Source: a virus (Duplodnaviria; Heunggongvirae; Uroviricota; Caudoviricetes). From it: 40,392 nucleotides of DNA. The translations under genes and the position numbers were made by a program. Positions 1-39,024 of this stretch are shown here, in pieces. The first letter of the stretch is position 1, and every line of letters begins with the position of its first letter. The stretch covers positions 1 to 40,392 of the IMG/VR virus record IMGVR_UViG_2617271049_000009; one strand, given 5' to 3'. Below the pieces are notes generated by a model. That model was not told the DNA's origin and searched no databases. It saw only the letters and a program-made list of their open reading frames with translations.

Positions 1-468
1 TTATATTTTAACCATTAAGTTATCGAGTACTGATGAAGCTATTCTTTTTATATATCGATAAAGGCCTCTATCTGTCGACTTGGAAAAAGTCAAATAAATC
101 TCCTTCTTTGACTGGGTATCCAGTTTTTTATAGCTTTCGAGAAGAACTTTAATGAACACCTCATCATTAACGATGTTTTTCAACATATCCCTAGATTCTT
201 TTTTTTCATCAGAAGTCATTTCCTTTAAAGATTCAATTGCTATTCTTAACTTTAATTCATCTTCATCTATCCTTTTAATTGTCGCTTCCAAATCCCCTAT
301 GCTTTTATTGATAGATTCAAGCTCACTAAAGCTCTTTGCCATTTCAGTTGCAAGCTCTTCATTAGCCTTAACTTTTTTACGAGTATGCATGATAGATGTA
401 GCTAAGCCTACAATTGCCGCTAAAGAAGACACTATCAACCCAGCATACATAAATATAATATCCTCCAT
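1..468 (-). CDS. hypothetical protein, N-terminal transmembrane helix followed by a long charged coiled-coil-like region (155 aa); second gene of an AT-rich two-gene operon
   Basis: Complete ORF with ATG at 468..466 and stop at 3..1; start overlaps the upstream stop as TAATG (translational coupling); hydrophobic residues ~5-27 then E/K-rich heptad-like sequence; very low GC versus the phage structural genes. Confidence 0.55.
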   Translation of the reverse strand: MEDIIFMYAGLIVSSLAAIVGLATSIMHTRKKVKANEELATEMAKSFSELESINKSIGDLEATIKRIDEDELKLRIAIESLKEMTSDEKKESRDMLKNIVNDEVFIKVLLESYKKLDTQSKKEIYLTFSKSTDRGLYRYIKRIASSVLDNLMVKI

Positions 469-905
469 TACATACCTCTCGTAAACTTAAAGGAGAAAAC
501 AGGCTCACATTCTACCACGTGTTTATTAAATCGTTCGAGAAGATGAAATATAAATATTACAGCCAGTAGTATCACCGTAACTACATAGTACCAGGTATAT
601 ATAATAACTTTTGGCTCACTAACTTTACCGTAAAGATAAGCGAGAATGAAACCACAAAAAATCCCTAAGCAAAAAATAGCTTTATCTCGAGAAGATACAC
701 CGATGGAAAAAGAGTATATTGATGCAGTAATTGTTAATGATTGTATTGAAGGGTGAGTTCCTGTGTTAATTGACTCAAAAAGTAATGGAAGCAACGGGAA
801 TATCATATAGAATATAATACTACCTGTAAAATCACTATATTCTTCACGCCAACCAATTGGCTTTCTGGGAAGTTTATTAGGAAACTCAGAGGTATCTCCA
901 CTCAT
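468..905 (-). CDS. hypothetical multi-pass membrane protein (145 aa from ATG at 905; the ORF extends to a GTG at 998, giving 176 aa)
   Basis: ORF with 3-4 hydrophobic segments; ATG at 905 preceded by GAGAG-like SD; stop overlaps start of the downstream gene; AT-rich. Confidence 0.5.
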   Translation of the reverse strand: MSGDTSEFPNKLPRKPIGWREEYSDFTGSIIFYMIFPLLPLLFESINTGTHPSIQSLTITASIYSFSIGVSSRDKAIFCLGIFCGFILAYLYGKVSEPKVIIYTWYYVVTVILLAVIFIFHLLERFNKHVVECEPVFSFKFTRGM

Positions 906-1196
906 TGTAATTTCTCTCTCAGTAATTTGTGCAACTTTTATCACTGTCAACCATGAGGTAGCAAGGATTTTGATGGCATATTTTAACAAAATATCCACTT
1001 AGAGGTATGAACTTCCGCTTCTGGCACACAGAGCTCTAGAGACAGTGGTGTAAAATCATGGAGAAGCGGTGGGATGAGGTGCTAATCTTTTCATGCAAAA
1101 AATACGTAAAATCAATAACGGCTGGACATCATTCAATACTCACACTATCGAAAGTCCACCATCCAGCCGCAGCAAGTTCTTGCATACGACGTGTCT

Positions 1197-1224
1197 GCGG
1201 GTTCAACTCCCGCCAGCTCCACCA
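1197..1224 (+). other. 28-nt fragment matching the 3' terminus of tmRNA (ssrA): T-arm, acceptor 3' strand and CCA; likely relic attachment-site copy
   Basis: Sequence GCGGGTTCAACTCCCGCCAGCTCCACCA read directly; matches the E. coli ssrA 3' end as I recall it; upstream sequence diverges, so not a complete tmRNA or tRNA. Confidence 0.5.
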
Positions 1225-1352
1225 ATCATGATTGGACGGTGCAGAACAACACCAATAAAAACAGGAAGTTAGCAGTCTCAGCAGGACACCGACCAGACGG
1301 TGAGGAGACAAAAAAGGATACGCAAAGGAGCCGCGGCTCCCAAGTGACATGA

Positions 1353-1383
1353 AAGCCCGCTGATGCGGGCTTTTTCGTTTTTA
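1353..1383 (+). terminator. Rho-independent terminator-like hairpin downstream of the ssrA-like fragment
   Basis: AGCCCGC-TGAT-GCGGGCT stem-loop followed by TTTTTCGTTTTT. Confidence 0.5.
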
Positions 1384-1768
1384 TTACCTGCGGCAACACG
1401 CTATCCCTCTTCGTGTTATGGGATGGAATTCCTTTTTACCTTCATTGGTACTTTCGGATACCAGATAACACCATTACCTATTTGACCAATGGCAGCGAAG
1501 CTGGTTTAAATAACCTCTCTAGCAAACAAGTACAACTAAGTTAAGTGGCCAAAAAAATCGCAATAAAACGTGCAATTACATTAACTAAGTAGGACGTTTT
1601 TAACACAAAAACATCGATTAAAAAACGCACTGTGACAAACACTGAAAAAACAAGCATCACACACATTTTTTATTCATGTTTATCAATATGTTAAAACATA
1701 ACCTTACTAATCTTGAATTCATCATCCGCTAATGTAGTTATATTATAAATAGCGCAGTGTGACACTCA

Positions 1769-3277
1769 ATGAAACCATCCATAGAACAACTTCTACATAT
1801 CTACGGGCCGATGTCCTCATCTGCCTTAAGAGAAAAACTGATAGCCAATGGCCTAACAGAAGTTAACGCCAGACAGCGAATCTCCCGCGTTGGAGGTGAT
1901 GTTCAACGTTTTACTCATTTTTCTTTGCCCAAAAATGAAGCATTTCTCTATCTGACAAAGGACTATAACTCTCGTCGATATTGGATTGCATTGCTTGAAA
2001 GTCATGTAAATGCAAGAACAGTCTATGCTCACACCTTTTTCGCTTTCCACCCTTATCAAGGGGCGATCCCGACATATCTTTTTAGCAAGGTTTCAGGGAG
2101 TCCGGACAAACTGAAGGGACACATTGCGTCAAGCCGTCTTGAAGCGCAATTGCTTAAAGGTTCAGTTCTGCGTAGGGAAGTTGATGTCGTTTTGGGGGAT
2201 TGTCTTGTTACTTACATAAATAATATTAACGGGGTAACGGATACCCAACATGTCCGAAACCAATTGCTGGTTGAAGATATTCTCATTAAAGGTGTAGCTG
2301 ACTGGATTAGACACAATGGCCTTGGCAGCTTTAATAAGGTCCAAGTCCGTAACTCTCAGAATATGCCTTCATTTAGCCATCACCATTGGGACATATGTGC
2401 TCCGTCATATATTATGCCTTTAGCAACAGTACAAAAAGGTGAAATGAGTAATGGCTTCATTGTTGCAGATGTCATATACAATGATTTAGATAGCAAAAGC
2501 ATCCAAACCTATCTCACGAAAGTACAGCGATGCAGAAATATGCGAAATACTCGCCCGTTTCTAGCTATGCTGATTGCAGAACGTTTTGATCCAGAAGCCT
2601 TTCGCCTTGCGAAACAAGCTGGTGTAATGGCTACAACAGTATCTAACCTACTTGGTCAAGACATTTCAGCACTACTGTCCAGTTTATTAAATACTCTTAA
2701 TCGTGCCGGTGCCATTGCGGCAGCAAACCCAGAAAAAATCAACGAACTATTTAAAGGACTTACGAGGATTGAAGGCGCCGCAATCAATATAAGAGGCGTA
2801 ATGTTTGAAATGTTAGTTGGTCACATCGTACTGAAAACCCAAAATGTCAGCACTGTTGACTTGAATAAACAAATCAGTACCGAGGCAGGTAAGGCTGAAA
2901 TAGATGTGATTGGTTTTAGAGGCGAAGCAGAAATTAAGTGCTACGAATGTAAAGGCTATGAAGTTAAGCGACTAATTTCAGTCGAAATGATCGAAAAGTG
3001 GCTCGAACGAGTTCAACGCATCAGAAAATTCTACAGTCAGATTCATGTGTACCGTGACCGAAAAATGACTTTTTCATTCTGGACCTCATCAGATTTTGAA
3101 CCTGAAGCACTTGAGCTGCTGCTTCATCAGAAGCAAAGAAATACAAAAATATCATTAGACTGGAAAAATGGACGTGACATTCTTTCCATTGTTAAGGAAG
3201 ACAATCTGAAATCAATTGCAGATGTTCTTCAGGAACATTATCTTCGACACCCACTGGCTCCTGATGCAGATATGTAA
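1769..3277 (+). CDS. hypothetical 502-aa protein; predicted N-terminal winged-helix-like region and C-terminal PD-(D/E)xK-like nuclease motif; candidate defence or restriction-type cargo gene
   Basis: Long uninterrupted ORF with ATG start, convergent with the invertase gene; C-terminal segment AEIDVIGFRGEAEIKCYECKGYE fits the hhhD-x(n)-(E/D)xK pattern; lower GC than phage core genes; sits where e14 carries mcrA. Confidence 0.7.
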   Translation: MKPSIEQLLHIYGPMSSSALREKLIANGLTEVNARQRISRVGGDVQRFTHFSLPKNEAFLYLTKDYNSRRYWIALLESHVNARTVYAHTFFAFHPYQGAIPTYLFSKVSGSPDKLKGHIASSRLEAQLLKGSVLRREVDVVLGDCLVTYINNINGVTDTQHVRNQLLVEDILIKGVADWIRHNGLGSFNKVQVRNSQNMPSFSHHHWDICAPSYIMPLATVQKGEMSNGFIVADVIYNDLDSKSIQTYLTKVQRCRNMRNTRPFLAMLIAERFDPEAFRLAKQAGVMATTVSNLLGQDISALLSSLLNTLNRAGAIAAANPEKINELFKGLTRIEGAAINIRGVMFEMLVGHIVLKTQNVSTVDLNKQISTEAGKAEIDVIGFRGEAEIKCYECKGYEVKRLISVEMIEKWLERVQRIRKFYSQIHVYRDRKMTFSFWTSSDFEPEALELLLHQKQRNTKISLDWKNGRDILSIVKEDNLKSIADVLQEHYLRHPLAPDADM

Positions 3278-3505
3278 TGTGGATAAGCCTAAGGTTTATT
3301 TAGCTGCCTTTGATGCTGTCTATTACCGAATTGTGATGGTCTGCCCAGTACAAAAATATCATTCTGGGCGAATTGATTTAGAGGGTTCACCGGCTCTAAG
3401 AGGCCGATATGTGGCTAGTGTCTGAGTTCCCAACAGCTCGACAGTTTGGGCTGTAAAGTTGTGCTGTCTGCCAGCATCAATCTTTACCGGTGGCCTGCAT
3501 CATGT

Positions 3506-4060
3506 CTAATCCCTGCCTACAGGAAATTTTCGGTATAGTGTTGACACTCCTACATCATAAATTAATGCTACGCGCTGACGCGTTTCTCCTGCAGCGATTA
3601 GTCTCCCTGCCTGCGCCCACTGCTCATCTGTTAGTTTTGGCTTACGTCCACCAATTCGTCCCTGTGCGCGAGCAGCTTCCAGTCCAGCTTTTGTTCGTTC
3701 AACAATCAGTTCACGCTCCATTTCAGCCAGGGCACCCATCACATGAAAGAAAAAGCGCCCCATTGGGGTACTAGTATCAATTGAATCCGTCAGACTACGA
3801 AAGTTGATGCCTCGTTCGCGCAACTCCTCAACCAGAATGACCAGATGCCGCATACTACGCCCCAGCCGATCCAGCTTCCAGACAACCAGAGTGTCACCTG
3901 CCGATAATGTCCTGAGCAGTTTTTTCAGTCCAGGCCTTTCGGACTTTGTACCGCTTATCTTGTCTTCAAAAATCAGCTCGCATCCTGCACAGTTCAGCGC
4001 ATTACGTTGTAGATCTGTGTTCTGGTCATTTGTTGACACACGTACATAGCCAATAAGCAT
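3506..4060 (-). CDS. pin: site-specific DNA invertase, serine recombinase of the Pin/Gin/Hin/Cin family (184 aa from MLIGYVRVSTNDQ)
   Basis: N-terminus MLIGYVRVSTNDQ with catalytic-serine context, resolvase-type domain and C-terminal HTH (YDVGVSTLYRKFP); adjacent to inverted repeats inside a tail-fibre gene. Confidence 0.9.
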   Translation of the reverse strand: MLIGYVRVSTNDQNTDLQRNALNCAGCELIFEDKISGTKSERPGLKKLLRTLSAGDTLVVWKLDRLGRSMRHLVILVEELRERGINFRSLTDSIDTSTPMGRFFFHVMGALAEMERELIVERTKAGLEAARAQGRIGGRKPKLTDEQWAQAGRLIAAGETRQRVALIYDVGVSTLYRKFPVGRD

Positions 4061-4086
4061 GGTAGATCTCCCTAGCAAAAGCAGGA

Positions 4087-4587
4087 ATGATGCCATTTGC
4101 TCGTTATTTCTGCATTTTCATAAACGTTGGTTTGGGAGAAGGTTCGGCATTACCCGTTGGTGTGCCTGTTCCGTGGCCTTCAGCCACTCCGCCAACAGGA
4201 TGGCTGAAATGCAATGGTGCGGCTTTTTCTGCTGAAGAATACCCGGAACTGGCAAAGGCTTACCCGACAAATAAATTGCCTGATTTACGCGGTGAGTTTA
4301 TTCGTGGCTGGGATGACGGTCGTTCAGTAGATACTGGTCGCAGCGTTATGTCTGCACAGAGCGCGCGTGTTGGTTATATTAAATTTGATATGGGAATTTA
4401 TGGTATTCCTGCAGGTACGGGCTCACTTATTTTGTCCAATGATATCTTAATTACGGGTCATGACAGTAATGGCTCAAGCCTATTGCTGAACAACTCTAAT
4501 GAGCGGGCAATTGGTGAAATGTATGTCGTTCCTGCCGATACTCGCCCACGGAATATCGCATTTAACTATATCGTGAGGGCTGCATAA
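4087..4587 (+). CDS. alternative tail-fibre C-terminal variable segment (166 aa), silent in the present orientation; e14 StfE-like
   Basis: ORF begins inside the inverted repeat with the same peptide (MPFARYFCIFINVGL) as the minus-strand copy; stop overlaps start of the downstream assembly gene (TAATG); same length as e14 StfE as I recall it. Confidence 0.65.
   Translation: MMPFARYFCIFINVGLGEGSALPVGVPVPWPSATPPTGWLKCNGAAFSAEEYPELAKAYPTNKLPDLRGEFIRGWDDGRSVDTGRSVMSAQSARVGYIKFDMGIYGIPAGTGSLILSNDILITGHDSNGSSLLLNNSNERAIGEMYVVPADTRPRNIAFNYIVRAA
4089..4145. repeat. left inverted repeat of the invertible tail-fibre segment (contains the putative crossover site near 4115..4140)
   Basis: ~57 bp identical except one mismatch to the reverse complement of 5959..6015; contains a TTTTCATAAACGTTGGTTTGGGAGAA element resembling hix/gix-type sites. 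Confidence 0.75.
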
Positions 4588-5199
4588 TGGATAACGCTGT
4601 ATTAAATAGCGAGTTTATTGCTACAAAGGCGGGAAATATTACCGTCTATAACTATGATGGCGAAACGCGGGAATATATTTCCACTTCAAATGAATATCTT
4701 GCCATTGGTGTCGGTATCCCTGCATATTCCTGTTTAGACGCTCCTGGTACATATAAGGCTGGTTATACAATTTGCCGTTCTGTGGATTTAAAATCATGGG
4801 AATATGTGTCAGACCATCGCGGTGAAATCGTCTATAACACCGAAACGGGAGACGCCAAAGAAATCACAGCTCCGGGTGATTATCCAGAAAATACAACCAC
4901 TATCGCCCCATTAACGCCATACGATAAATGGGATGGTGAGAAATGGGTGACCGATACTGAGGCACNNNNNNNNNNGCGCTGCAGTAGACGCGGCAGAAGC
5001 ACAGCGTCAGTCACTGATTGATACTGCAATGGCTTCCATTAGTCTGATTCAGCTGAAATTACAGGCCGGACGGAATTTGACGCAGTCAGAAACCAGCCGA
5101 CTTAACACGGTGTTGGATTACATTGACGCGGTGACGGCAACAGATACCAGCACCGCGCCGGATGTTATCTGGCCTGAACTGCCGGAGACTGCGCAATAA
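4587..5199 (+). CDS. tail fibre assembly protein (Tfa), interrupted by a 10-N gap at 4966..4975
   Basis: N-terminal part ends at the gap; after the gap a different frame gives the conserved Tfa C-terminus (...DYIDAVTATDTSTAPDVIWPELPETAQ) ending at TAA 5197..5199. Confidence 0.7.
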
Positions 5200-5334
5200 A
5201 CTCACCATCAATATATAAATCCCCCTGCTGTGTGTCAGCAGGGCATTCTTTCCATATTAATGATGGATGGAATCTTCCTTCAGGATTAATTTCCGTTATC
5301 TCTTCTACTTTATTTTCTTCAATTCTTGCCCACA
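5165..5334 (-). CDS. short tail-fibre-assembly-like ORF (56 aa) downstream of the active variable segment; possibly truncated
   Basis: ATG at 5334 with GAGGT SD, 9 nt after the stop of the upstream tail-fibre segment; lacks the conserved Tfa C-terminus and overlaps the 3' end of the plus-strand tfa. Confidence 0.35.
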
Positions 5335-6025: not shown

Positions 6026-6301
6026 TGTTTTCACCGTGCCATCCGATTTGATATCGCCAAACGGATTCTTGCGGCTTAACAGCAGCGCACGAAGCGCGGT
6101 AAGCAGCTGGTCATGCCGCCCCTTCTCCAGGCTGGCACCGGATGCCTCCACAACGCTGCAAAGCTCCTCCTGCAACATGTCAAAGTAGTCATCATCCAGA
6201 TCGGTGGCAGGCGTGCCGGTCTGGGGGTTACCACGGGTAAAACCGTTCTTACCCGCGCCGAACTTATCCTTCTGCGCGGTTTTCGTGTCTATACGATGCA
6301 T
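6026..6301 (-). CDS. tail-fibre protein, constant N-terminal part (3' portion lost in N gap 6016..6025)
   Basis: ATG at 6301 four nt after the stop of the upstream baseplate gene; N-terminus [46 protein letters not shown] typical of fibre N-termini. Confidence 0.6.
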
Positions 6302-24138: not shown

Positions 24139-24408
24139 TCATTTTTTTTGCATGATGTGACCACGCTCAACTTCAATCCTTCTGATGTCAGCTTTATCGG
24201 TATTACACTGCGCCAATGCAGACAACAAGGCGACATTCAGATCTAAGCTCGAGCCCCACGTAAAATGATCAGGTAAATCAGGCTGAGGGGTTTCAGCCGT
24301 CAGGCTGGCTGGTAACGGAACTACCGGAACCTGGACGTAAACTGTTCGCGTACTTCCGCAACCGGTCAGCAGCGGCAGCAGGCACAGGACGTGAAGCACA
24401 ATCATCAT
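24139..24408 (-). CDS. o-spanin Rz1-like lipoprotein, overlapping the 3' part of Rz in another frame
   Basis: Signal peptide with lipobox LLTGC followed by a Pro-rich segment; starts inside the Rz gene and extends beyond its stop. Confidence 0.55.
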   Translation of the reverse strand: MMIVLHVLCLLPLLTGCGSTRTVYVQVPVVPLPASLTAETPQPDLPDHFTWGSSLDLNVALLSALAQCNTDKADIRRIEVERGHIMQKK

Positions 24409-30692: not shown

Positions 30693-31634
30693 TCACCCCC
30701 TGAATCCTGCCGGGATCTGGCTGTAGTCCACGTTGTCGTAACTGGATTTGAAGTACGGGTCTTCGCGTTTTTCGGTGTACGTGCTTACGGACGGCGATAA
30801 GCGCAGGGAAAGCTCATCCCATTTTTCCCGCAGCTTCGACGGGCTGAGCACGTTACGGCACCAGAACGGATCGCGGCTGACGCGGCTGTACATCTCGCAG
30901 ATTTGTTTGTGAGTACGACCATCCTGCACACACATCAGGCGAATTTCGTTTGCCCAGGCTGTCCAGTTCGGTTCTTTGGGACGAACCACCTCGCCGTCAC
31001 ATTCGGCAGCCTGCTCGTACAGGGCAATGATTTTTTTCCAGAGCCACTGTGCACAGGTCAAATCATCCTGCGTTCCCCACTGGCGCTTTTTAGGGCTGAA
31101 TACAACCGCATCAGGATGGCGAGTTAAAAAATCCTGTTCAGCCGTCTGCGTGTCCGGTTGCGAAGCGTCCGGACGAGAAGGTTTTTTATCTGACGGATCA
31201 TGTTTTGATTTTACTGACGGATCCCCGCCAGATTCTGACGGGTGAAAACCCGCTTTTTTGCCAGATTTCGACGCATCAAATTTTGACGGGTCAGATTTTG
31301 ATGCGTCAGATTTTGACGGGTCAGAATCTGACAGTTGAGAAAATGCCGCTGCCTGAAGCTTCGCAACGTTAAGCTGATAAACATTCGACGCATTGCGGTT
31401 ACCCTGGCGACGCGCCTTACGCGTTAACCAGCCTTCTGCTTCCAGCCGTGCGATAGCCGTTCTGACGGTACTCATCCCCGCGCCAATCTGACGGGCAATG
31501 GTTTCAATTGATGGCCAGCACACACCTTCGTCATTACTGAAATCAGCCAGGCGGGCCATAATTGCCACGCTGGATAACTTCATGCCTGATGCAGCGCAAC
31601 CATCCCATACATAGCCGGTTAATTTAGTGCTCAT
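30693..31634 (-). CDS. replication initiation protein (O-like, 313 aa) with internal iteron-encoded linker repeats
   Basis: N-terminal HTH-like DNA-binding region, central D/S/K-rich repeat linker encoded by tandem DNA repeats, Trp-rich C-terminal region; position downstream of the CII-like gene. Confidence 0.7.
   Translation of the reverse strand: MSTKLTGYVWDGCAASGMKLSSVAIMARLADFSNDEGVCWPSIETIARQIGAGMSTVRTAIARLEAEGWLTRKARRQGNRNASNVYQLNVAKLQAAAFSQLSDSDPSKSDASKSDPSKFDASKSGKKAGFHPSESGGDPSVKSKHDPSDKKPSRPDASQPDTQTAEQDFLTRHPDAVVFSPKKRQWGTQDDLTCAQWLWKKIIALYEQAAECDGEVVRPKEPNWTAWANEIRLMCVQDGRTHKQICEMYSRVSRDPFWCRNVLSPSKLREKWDELSLRLSPSVSTYTEKREDPYFKSSYDNVDYSQIPAGFRG
31185..31335. repeat. iteron array inside the replication gene (five tandem 15-bp units CAGATTTTGACGGGT at 31261..31335 plus degenerate copies upstream); putative origin
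   Basis: Tandem repeats read directly from the sequence. Confidence 0.65.
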
Positions 31635-37788: not shown

Positions 37789-38934
37789 GGTGAAATATGG
37801 TACGCCAGTTTCACATTGCCGAACGGTAAAAGATTTAAACAGTCTCTTGGAACAAAGGACAAAAGGCAGGCGACAGAACTCCATGACAAGCTAAAGGCTG
37901 AAGCATGGCGGGTCAGCAAACTTGGTGAAATACCTGATATAACGTTCGAGGAAGCGTGTGTCAGGTGGCTTGAAGAGAAAGCACATAAAAAATCACTGGA
38001 CGATGACAAAAGCCGGATCGGATTCTGGCTTCAACATTTCGCAGGAATGCAACTAAGAGACATTACTGAATCAAAAATTTATTCAGCAATGCAGAAAATG
38101 ACGAACCGGCGTCATGAGGAAAACTGGAAACTCAGGGCAGAAGCATGCAGAAAAAAAGGGAAACCTGTTCCAGAATACACGCCAAAACCAGCGTCCGTTG
38201 CAACGAAGGCTACGCATCTTTCATTTATAAAGGCCCTACTAAGAGCCGCAGAGCGTGAATGGAAAATGCTGGATAAGGCACCAATTATTAAAGTGCCTCA
38301 ACCAAAGAATAAACGGATCCGCTGGCTGGAGCCCCATGAAGCACAAAGGCTGATTGATGAATGTCCGGAGCCATTAAAGTCTGTTGTTGAATTTGCACTG
38401 GCAACAGGCTTAAGACGCTCGAACATCATCAACCTTGAATGGCAACAAATAGATATGCAGCGCCGGGTGGCATGGATAAACCCGGAAGAGAGTAAATCAA
38501 ACCGCGCAATTGGCGTTGCGCTGAATGATACTGCATGTCGCGTTTTGAAAAAACAAATCGGGAATCATCACCGTTGGGTATTTGTGTACAAGGAAAGCTG
38601 TACCAAACCAGACGGAACGAAAGCGCCAACAGTAAGGAAGATGCGGTATGACGCAAACACAGCCTGGAAAGCGGCGCTGAGACGGGCTGGTATTGATGAT
38701 TTCAGATTTCACGACTTGAGACACACCTGGGCAAGTTGGCTGGTTCAAGCCGGAGTCCCGTTGTCAGTGTTACAGGAAATGGGAGGCTGGGAGTCTATCG
38801 AAATGGTTCGTCGATATGCTCACCTTGCACCTAATCACCTTACCGAACACGCACGGCAAATAGACTCGATCCTGAACCCATCGGTCCCAAATTCGTCCCA
38901 GTCAAAAAATAAGGAAGGTACTAATGATGTGTAA
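37789..38934 (+). CDS. int: tyrosine site-specific integrase; 5' end lost in the N gap
   Basis: Reading frame open from the gap ([16 protein letters not shown]...); C-terminal catalytic region with HDLRHTWAS...[15 protein letters not shown] (R, HxxR and Tyr motifs); ends 15 nt from the tRNA 3' end. Confidence 0.92.
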
Positions 38935-38948
38935 CTTATTGATTTAAA

Positions 38949-39024
38949 TGGTGCCGATAATAGGAGTCGAACCTACGACCTTCGCATTACGAATGCGCTG
39001 CTCTACCAACTGAGCTATATCGGC
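38949..39024 (-). tRNA. thrW: tRNA-Thr (anticodon CGT), phage attachment site
   Basis: Reverse complement reads GCCGATATAGCTCAGTTGGTAGAGCAGCGCATTCGTAATGCGAAGGTCGTAGGTTCGACTCCTATTATCGGCACCA, a 76-nt cloverleaf with CGT anticodon and encoded CCA. Confidence 0.9.

Follow-up and report, generated by a model that had tools for sequence, protein, structure and literature searches.

Attachment sites in ssrA and thrW

Elements that target tDNA carry in their attP a fragment of the target gene, so that integration restores that gene (PMC4383910), and the tmRNA gene ssrA is targeted by several integrase subfamilies (PMC10121019). Nothing on the ssrA trailer or on the structure of its att sites is found in PMC10107115. 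The closest relatives of the locus described here are the free phage LLS (PQ299149) and a prophage that occupies the real ssrA of E. coli TUM11352. In LLS the block in question is annotated as "tmRNA pseudogene / attP", and the order of the region is xis, int, gp31, "tmRNA pseudogene / attP", trailer and terminator, cargo, Fin invertase and tail fibres. The integrases of LLS and TUM11352 are 86% identical to one another and both have an Arm-DNA-bind_2 domain; the attachment site, which is used for integration, is adjacent to this ssrA-type integrase in LLS and lies within ~2 kb of it in TUM11352. A further 3' ssrA fragment is known from K-12 as psaA, at the attR of the CP4-57 island, where the displaced bacterial copy remains at ssrA with a 14-nt block from which one T is missing, the end of CP4-57 at its left, and a trailer and terminator after it. 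The SfV-group Shigella phages integrate at thrW via a 46-nt core, and they carry gtrABC between the tail genes and attP (PMC3636060).

The window analyzed here is the whole of a 40,392-nucleotide stretch of a Caudoviricetes record (IMG/VR IMGVR_UViG_2617271049_000009), and it originates from the proA-thrW region of E. coli. The original prediction had placed in it a 3'-end fragment of ssrA with a terminator, embedded in a thrW-integrated prophage, and had read the fragment as an attachment remnant of an ssrA-targeting island of the CP4-57 type. Fragment, terminator and thrW prophage are all present, and the reading of the fragment as an attachment site of an ssrA-targeting mobile element is retained; its assignment to the CP4-57 type is not. 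Positions 1197-1383 are probably a fossil half-attachment site, namely core plus P' arm from the attP of SfV/e14-like phages that integrate into ssrA, and the relic is likely to be what an exchange of integration modules left behind. Its ingredients are of known kinds: phages carry tDNA fragments in their attP, and lambdoid and SfV-like phages exchange integration modules in mosaic fashion. The finding is tidy and common, not surprising.

An SfV-group prophage at thrW

ARAGORN, and Rfam at its gathering threshold, both identify the tRNA-Thr(CGU) gene thrW at 38949-39024 (minus strand). Inside it lies the 46-nt SfV/P22 att core (38949-38994), which is identical to the core given in PMC3636060. 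A tyrosine integrase of the SfV/SfIV (thrW) type adjoins thrW (37816-38934, plus strand) and is the sole tyrosine integrase detected in the window. The int-xis module is 99.5-99.8% identical to those of SfIV and SfV, and 98.6-99.8% identical when the thrW-integrating phages SfV, SfIV, SfII and SfI are taken together; a 17.6-kb structural block is ~97% identical to the same four phages, which also share with the window the 46-nt thrW core next to proA.

A second thrW core was searched for inside the window and none was found. In strain MEI7BO1-21, which is 99.8% identical to the window over 1-5200, a second thrW att core is present outside the window, 556-611 bp left of its first base, where it adjoins a truncated yagP-like LysR gene and paoD. 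The prophage therefore has what is seen in the SfV group at thrW, that is an SfV-type int-xis module, SfV-like structural genes and the 46-nt core at both ends, the repeat at the second end being known from the near-identical MEI7BO1-21 and lying just outside the window. From the positions of the thrW cores in the window and in MEI7BO1-21 it follows that the ssrA fragment lies ~1.8 kb inside a thrW-bounded prophage of the SfV group. The original prediction had also allowed for a small piggy-backed element, but the interval from the thrW repeat to the fragment contains no second integrase.

In place of the gtrABC genes of the Shigella phages the window has pinE, a gene of 502 codons, the ssrA relic, an element of lambda b type and two cargo genes. 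The latter two, ORFs of 155 and 176 aa on the minus strand (1-998), occupy what is termed here cargo slot A, which is bounded by the b-type element on one side and, outside the window, by the thrW repeat on the other. Cargo slot B, holding the 502-aa ORF (1769-3277, plus strand), for which no family match was obtained, lies between the ssrA terminator and the pinE-type serine invertase (3506-4096, minus strand), a protein with Resolvase and HTH_7 domains encoded at the tail-fibre end of the prophage. In strain H7 a copy of the thrW core is present beyond slot A, which places the composite of b-type element and ssrA relic inside the phage. Elsewhere in the window, about five tandem 15-nt repeats resembling CAGATTTTGACGGGT are present at 31262-31336, within the ORF 30693-31634; they resemble the origin iterons within a lambda O-type replication gene.

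The ssrA fragment, trailer and terminator

The last 28 nt of ssrA are present as an exact copy at 1197-1224 (plus strand, 28/28) and comprise the 5' strand of the T-stem, the T-loop, the 3' strand of the T-stem, the 3' acceptor strand and CCA. This sequence, GCGGGTTCAACTCCCGCCAGCTCCACCA, occurs once in the window, with no mismatch, and 100 dinucleotide-preserving shuffles yielded no match to it when up to three mismatches were allowed. By local BLAST the block at 1197 aligns 29/29 with the 3' end of K-12 ssrA, the base after CCA included, so that the correspondence to T-arm, acceptor strand and CCA on which the original prediction was built is exact. The T-stem arms GCGGG and CCCGC are intact in the window and symmetric around the T-loop. 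Only 24 of the 28 nt can be assigned strictly and unambiguously to ssrA, because GCGG is common to the foot of the upstream hairpin and to the ssrA T-stem.

The fragment is followed on the plus strand by a copy of the ssrA 3' trailer (1225-1350), the putative P' arm of the ancestral attP, and by an intrinsic terminator homologous to the native ssrA terminator (1351-1383). The hairpin of the latter, GAAAGCCCGC-TGAT-GCGGGCTTTT, occupies 1351-1374 and precedes a T-run that extends to ~1383; both the terminator hairpin and the T-arm hairpin fold as expected. Window positions 1210-1379 are 90.6% identical, over 171 nt, to the K-12 sequence after the CP4-57 attR, in a region extending from the start of psaA to just before ypjA that corresponds to the displaced ssrA 3' end, the native trailer and the terminator. 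Within the terminator stem the window has CCCGC/GCGGG where K-12 has CCCAC/GTGGG (locus L005, ~6110-6135), and this compensatory change between G-C and A-T appears consistent with a hairpin that is functional in the ssrA context. Taken together, the trailer identity and the compensatory stem pair identify 1197-1383 as a copy of the ssrA 3' end, trailer and terminator. The trailer is ~90% identical to the native copies at the K-12 CP4-57 attR and at the TUM11352 attR, and 96.9% identical to the phage-supplied trailer at the TUM11352 attL, where trailer and terminator taken together are 98-99% identical; overall, the trailer resembles phage-borne copies (93-97%) more closely than those at chromosomal attR sites (~90%).

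The remainder of ssrA is absent from the window, as had been predicted and as the ARAGORN and Rfam results indicate. ARAGORN reported no tmRNA gene in the window, the tRNA-Thr(CGU) being its sole call, and Rfam at gathering thresholds returned the thrW tRNA and no tmRNA. No match to the body of ssrA (tag reading frame, pseudoknots) was found anywhere in the window. A permissive Rfam scan of 900-1800 gave 18.4 bits for tmRNA (RF00023) and 20.7 bits for permuted tmRNA, against a gathering threshold of 47, and both scores rest on the 3' T-arm and acceptor end only. A complete tRNA-like domain of tmRNA is not formed, the 5' acceptor strand being absent and the b-type element lying upstream of 1197. 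Other permissive Rfam matches (RsmY, the rimP leader and others) were rejected, as they fall far below gathering and owe their scores to the terminator or the T-arm.

The lambda b-type element and the joint

The left flank of the fragment (1010-1196, plus strand) is a conserved intergenic element of the lambda b region, located in lambda at 24162-24348 between ea31 and ea47. Window positions 1014-1200 are 80% identical to this lambda interval, including the terminal hairpin CCGCAGCACG...CGTGTCTGCGG, which in the window lies at 1167-1200 and reads CCGCAG CACG ... CGTG TCTGCGG. Its last four bases, GCGG, are the natural end of the b-type hairpin in lambda and in other copies, and they overlap the start of the ssrA fragment. 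After TCTGCGG, CTCTACC follows in lambda and GTTCAAC in the window, a divergence that places the joint within GCGG, common to the hairpin foot and to the ssrA T-stem. The lambda element thus continues with CTCTACCATA and then ea47, whereas that of the window continues with the ssrA fragment; in lambda, as in the window, the element is positioned between accessory genes near the tail-fibre end.

A match to the b-type element is present in nearly all E. coli genomes, at a median of three places per genome. Related copies occur in lambdoid prophages at icd, at the lambda attachment site and near ompN, and a piece of ~90 nt lies between ykgJ and ecpE in K-12 (locus L006, 46225-46314). The terminal hairpin looks like an intrinsic terminator, and in other copies it is followed by a T-run. 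The hairpin module (1167-1205) is also found elsewhere on its own and with a T-run, just downstream of pinE or of tail-fibre assembly genes (loci L009, 10856-10893; L010, 11325-11365; L011, 11330-11365; and L003, 8764-8870), and it has the look of a portable terminator cassette located at the borders of cargo. A piece of the element is sometimes labelled by PGAP as a "capsid protein" pseudogene (L011, 7093-7173).

The structure of the junction is formally attL-like, with a foreign arm, a core and a P' arm. The stretch 1010-1196 was considered as the P arm of an ssrA-type attP and ruled out, because it is absent from both the TUM11352 prophage and LLS. In STEC 97-3250 a b-type element does occur near the real ssrA, but it lies downstream in the prophage cargo and is not a P arm.

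Probable exchange of the integration module

Collinearity between the window and the prophage in the real ssrA of TUM11352 extends over window positions 1197 to ~36893; it is interrupted by gaps and by patches of greater divergence, and the identity of most blocks is 93-99%. Homology between the two begins exactly at 1197, the first base of the 28-mer, and in TUM11352 these 28 nt are the end of the annotated tmRNA gene. That gene is directly followed by sequence 99% identical to window 1197-4316, a counterpart that includes trailer, terminator, 502-aa ORF and pinE. At the far end of the TUM11352 prophage there are a different integrase, three cargo genes and a second ssrA fragment with trailer, which is 91.7% identical to the window and represents the displaced bacterial copy. 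The homology of LLS to thrW-type prophages likewise begins at the ssrA core, and its trailer and terminator are 92% identical to those of the window.

The LLS attP and the TUM11352 prophage both have a core that starts GCGGGTTCAAC, as in the window, and the same trailer and terminator; the position of the site relative to cargo, invertase and tail-fibre genes is also that of the window, and the rest is collinear. Unlike both of them, the window lacks the ssrA-type integrase and the P arm, and has the lambda b-type element instead. The integrase of the window is 25% identical to those of LLS and TUM11352, in the catalytic domain only, and tblastn searches found in the window no ssrA-type integrase; neither LLS gp31 nor the LLS/TUM11352 integrase has a homologue there. 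What the window has of an ssrA-type attP is the core and, as P' arm, the trailer with its terminator, in the neighbourhood of cargo, invertase and tail-fibre genes, but not the P arm beside an Arm-DNA-bind_2 plus Phage_integrase protein. Likewise, of the Islander signature (PMC4383910) it has the 3' fragment identical to the target tDNA (28/28), but no full-length ssrA at the other end and no cognate integrase between the two.

The course of events that is proposed starts from the ssrA-type phages, which carry the last 28 nt of ssrA together with trailer and terminator. On integration this phage copy rebuilds an intact and properly terminated ssrA, while the bacterial original comes to lie at the opposite end of the prophage. 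The window phage shares almost its whole genome with such ssrA-type phages, apart from an int-xis-attP module that is the thrW-targeting one of SfV/SfIV; with this module the phage resides at thrW, and the old ssrA half-site would be carried along as passenger DNA. At its left the half-site is fused to the lambda b-region element at the 4-nt GCGG microhomology. Illegitimate recombination at that microhomology is one conceivable route, and recombination by an ssrA-type Int at a pseudo-site is another, as might occur if an ssrA-type phage entered the b region of a resident thrW prophage and a homologous deletion followed. We infer both the direction and the mechanism of the exchange, and little confidence attaches to any one route; no intermediate was found, such as an ssrA-type phage inserted in the b region of another prophage. 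That the fragment records past recombination between mobile elements agrees with what the original prediction had proposed. Judged from sequence, the ssrA site is presumably now inert for integration, its terminator being the only likely residual activity, and the relic appears to be neutral.

Distribution and decay of the composite

A 73-nt query across the junction (1160-1232) matches 601 of the 5,426 complete E. coli genomes searched, at a query coverage of at least 80%, which is ~11%, or about one genome in nine. With a 181-nt junction query (1120-1300) the number is 548 of the 5,426, again at 80% coverage or more. The 73-nt junction is matched at 100% identity by at least 38 genome records, the 28-nt core being perfect in them. 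The original prediction would have been refuted had the stretch proved to be ordinary phage sequence unrelated to ssrA islands; ordinary and widespread it is, but it is related to ssrA-integrating phages.

Nine composite loci were inspected (MEI7BO1-21, H7, LR-62-2, Sanji, KFu021, TOE51, 23CRST007, 2013C-4991 and pHNAH212872-4), so that base-by-base inspection covers a handful of the ~600 composite copies. In each of the nine the trailer comes after the core, and the composite has a variable gene set on either side, with pinE or tail-fibre assembly genes nearby, and belongs to the cargo/tail-fibre end of a prophage; most are in the thrW region. The core itself is often altered. GCGGT replaces GCGGG in H7, LR-62-2, Sanji and TOE51, and ACGGT is found in KFu021; Sanji has in addition a C-to-A change, TOE51 has a 2-nt deletion together with substitutions, and CGCAAGC is another mutated form among the ssrA cores of composite copies. 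The G/T polymorphism of the core lies only 5 nt from the junction. Mutations of this kind would be expected in DNA that is no longer selected to match ssrA.

In comparisons with other thrW-type copies, the identity of the window is 83-86% for 1010-1196 and 93-95% for the trailer. The better-kept trailer, together with the perfect core in at least 38 records, could reflect selection or recent exchange and not neutral drift. For the perfect core of the window, recent homologous exchange with an ssrA-type phage has been considered as a possible source, although composites whose core is perfect are common.

Alternative explanations

Other accounts of the block differ in what they say of its origin or of its present use. 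An assembly chimera, which the original prediction had kept as one option, and a truncated but functional tmRNA or tRNA-like gene are both scarcely credible. The same junction occurs in many independent complete genomes, the exact 73-nt form in at least 38 independent records and a junction-spanning copy in ~600 genomes, and its presence in those records rules out an assembly artefact; the weak permissive scores of 18.4 bits (tmRNA) and 20.7 bits (permuted tmRNA) that might speak for a tmRNA-like gene are far below 47 and concern the 3' end only, ARAGORN finds nothing, and the 5' acceptor strand, tag reading frame and pseudoknot are all lacking. It is very improbable that the fragment is an attR remnant of a CP4-57-type island, or of an ssrA tandem array, left by imprecise excision. 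Trailer and terminator do resemble the sequence after the K-12 CP4-57 attR, but what follows CCA in the window is the native-trailer sequence ATCATGATTGG and not the CP4-57 arm AAATTCTCC. Neither this intA-side arm nor the ypjF-side arm is present; K-12 CP4-57 ends with ypjF and an unrelated arm, whereas the left flank here is the lambda b element. The window also has no 14-nt block: its identity block is 28 nt long, as in LLS, while that of psaA at the CP4-57 attR has 14 nt and lacks 1 nt, its trailer is closer to phage-borne copies than to the chromosomal attR, and the free phage LLS has the block as its attP. The window copy thus differs from psaA in being phage-borne, in its length, in its location at thrW and in its b-type flank. 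A working secondary att site, that is, a landing pad for ssrA-specific integrases, is improbable as well, although it would have consequences in permitting prophage-in-prophage insertion or recombination between the thrW and ssrA loci. It would fit the complete and intact 28-nt core, present in the window as in at least 38 genome records, and the number of integrase subfamilies that target ssrA (PMC10121019). On the other side, a chimeric query made of b-type element, core and CP4-57 arm found none of the 5,426 genomes at 80% coverage or more, so that no CP4-57-type insertion at the relic is seen, and the core is followed by the trailer in all nine loci and is mutated in many copies.

Another proposal is that the block, with the hairpin at the end of the b-type element, is kept for a present function, as a terminator or insulator and as a recombination anchor between the two cargo slots, through which lambdoid and SfV-like prophages could swap cargo by homologous recombination; it is a claim on maintenance, compatible with a relic origin, and may be called possible though doubtful. 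Variable gene sets flank the composite beside pinE or tail-fibre assembly genes in all examined loci, it is present in ~11% of complete genomes, its strong intrinsic-terminator hairpin is preceded by a second hairpin, which in other copies has a T-run, and trailer and terminator are 93-95% conserved among phage copies, all of which would fit such a function. Hitch-hiking with a successful phage lineage would, however, give the same distribution. Moreover, the cargo-A genes of the window are on the opposite strand, which leaves little obvious plus-strand transcription to terminate, and no promoter-like site was found on the plus strand at 900-1900. More broadly, the composite might not be neutral, whether as a boundary module of the cargo slots, made of two back-to-back terminators that double as an anchor, or as a usable site of attL/attB type where the core is intact. 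This is unlikely, but it would imply exchange of cargo among lambdoid and SfV-like prophages by recombination, or the rearrangement and stacking of prophages by ssrA-specific integrases.

Implications and neighbouring cargo

Read as a fossil half of an ssrA-type attP, the locus offers a clean and datable footprint of the swapping of integration modules in SfV-like serotype-converting phages, a medically relevant group, and in their E. coli relatives. One phage backbone is found with either an ssrA-specific or a thrW-specific module, the thrW form retaining half of an ssrA site. Orphan ssrA fragments, present in about one in nine complete E. coli genomes, can mislead the delimitation of islands by tDNA fragments in the manner of Islander. 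The current understanding of tmRNA and of site-specific integration is unchanged by these findings.

The composite is at the same time a reproducible boundary of two variable cargo slots and could aid the mining of prophages for defence genes. The 155-, 176- and 502-aa ORFs of the window gave no informative match in Pfam, PADLOC and PHROGs scans; the 502-aa gene follows the real ssrA in TUM11352. The comparison of cargo covered window 1-998 and 1769-3277 and the loci L003, L009-L011 and L019-L021. In other strains slot A is occupied by different genes, and the occupants of slot B are a type II restriction-modification pair, a helicase or BRO-N/HTH/ImmA genes. Across loci the variable neighbours include the type II restriction-modification pair, BRO-N/HTH/ImmA genes and AAA ATPases, and further a DEAD/DEAH box helicase, a SMEK-domain protein and a GIY-YIG protein. 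The two-slot arrangement looks like a prophage defence or moron hotspot.

Some further loci are of related interest. In TUM11352, genes for a hypothetical, a STAS-like and a second hypothetical protein lie between the integrase and attR (locus L008, 7345-9215), and these extra genes form a third cargo slot, situated on the side of attP that carries the P arm. A lambdoid prophage (L013) has an AAA ATPase and an HNH endonuclease beside a b-type element that is without the ssrA relic. Lastly, pHNAH212872-4 (NZ_CP104634.1, locus L021; 30,475 bp), a record submitted as a circular plasmid, contains genes from the thrW region of the chromosome, namely a fragment of ykgR and LysR fragments, along with the composite, a restriction-modification pair and pinE; rather than a true plasmid, it may be a piece of chromosome that was excised or misassembled.
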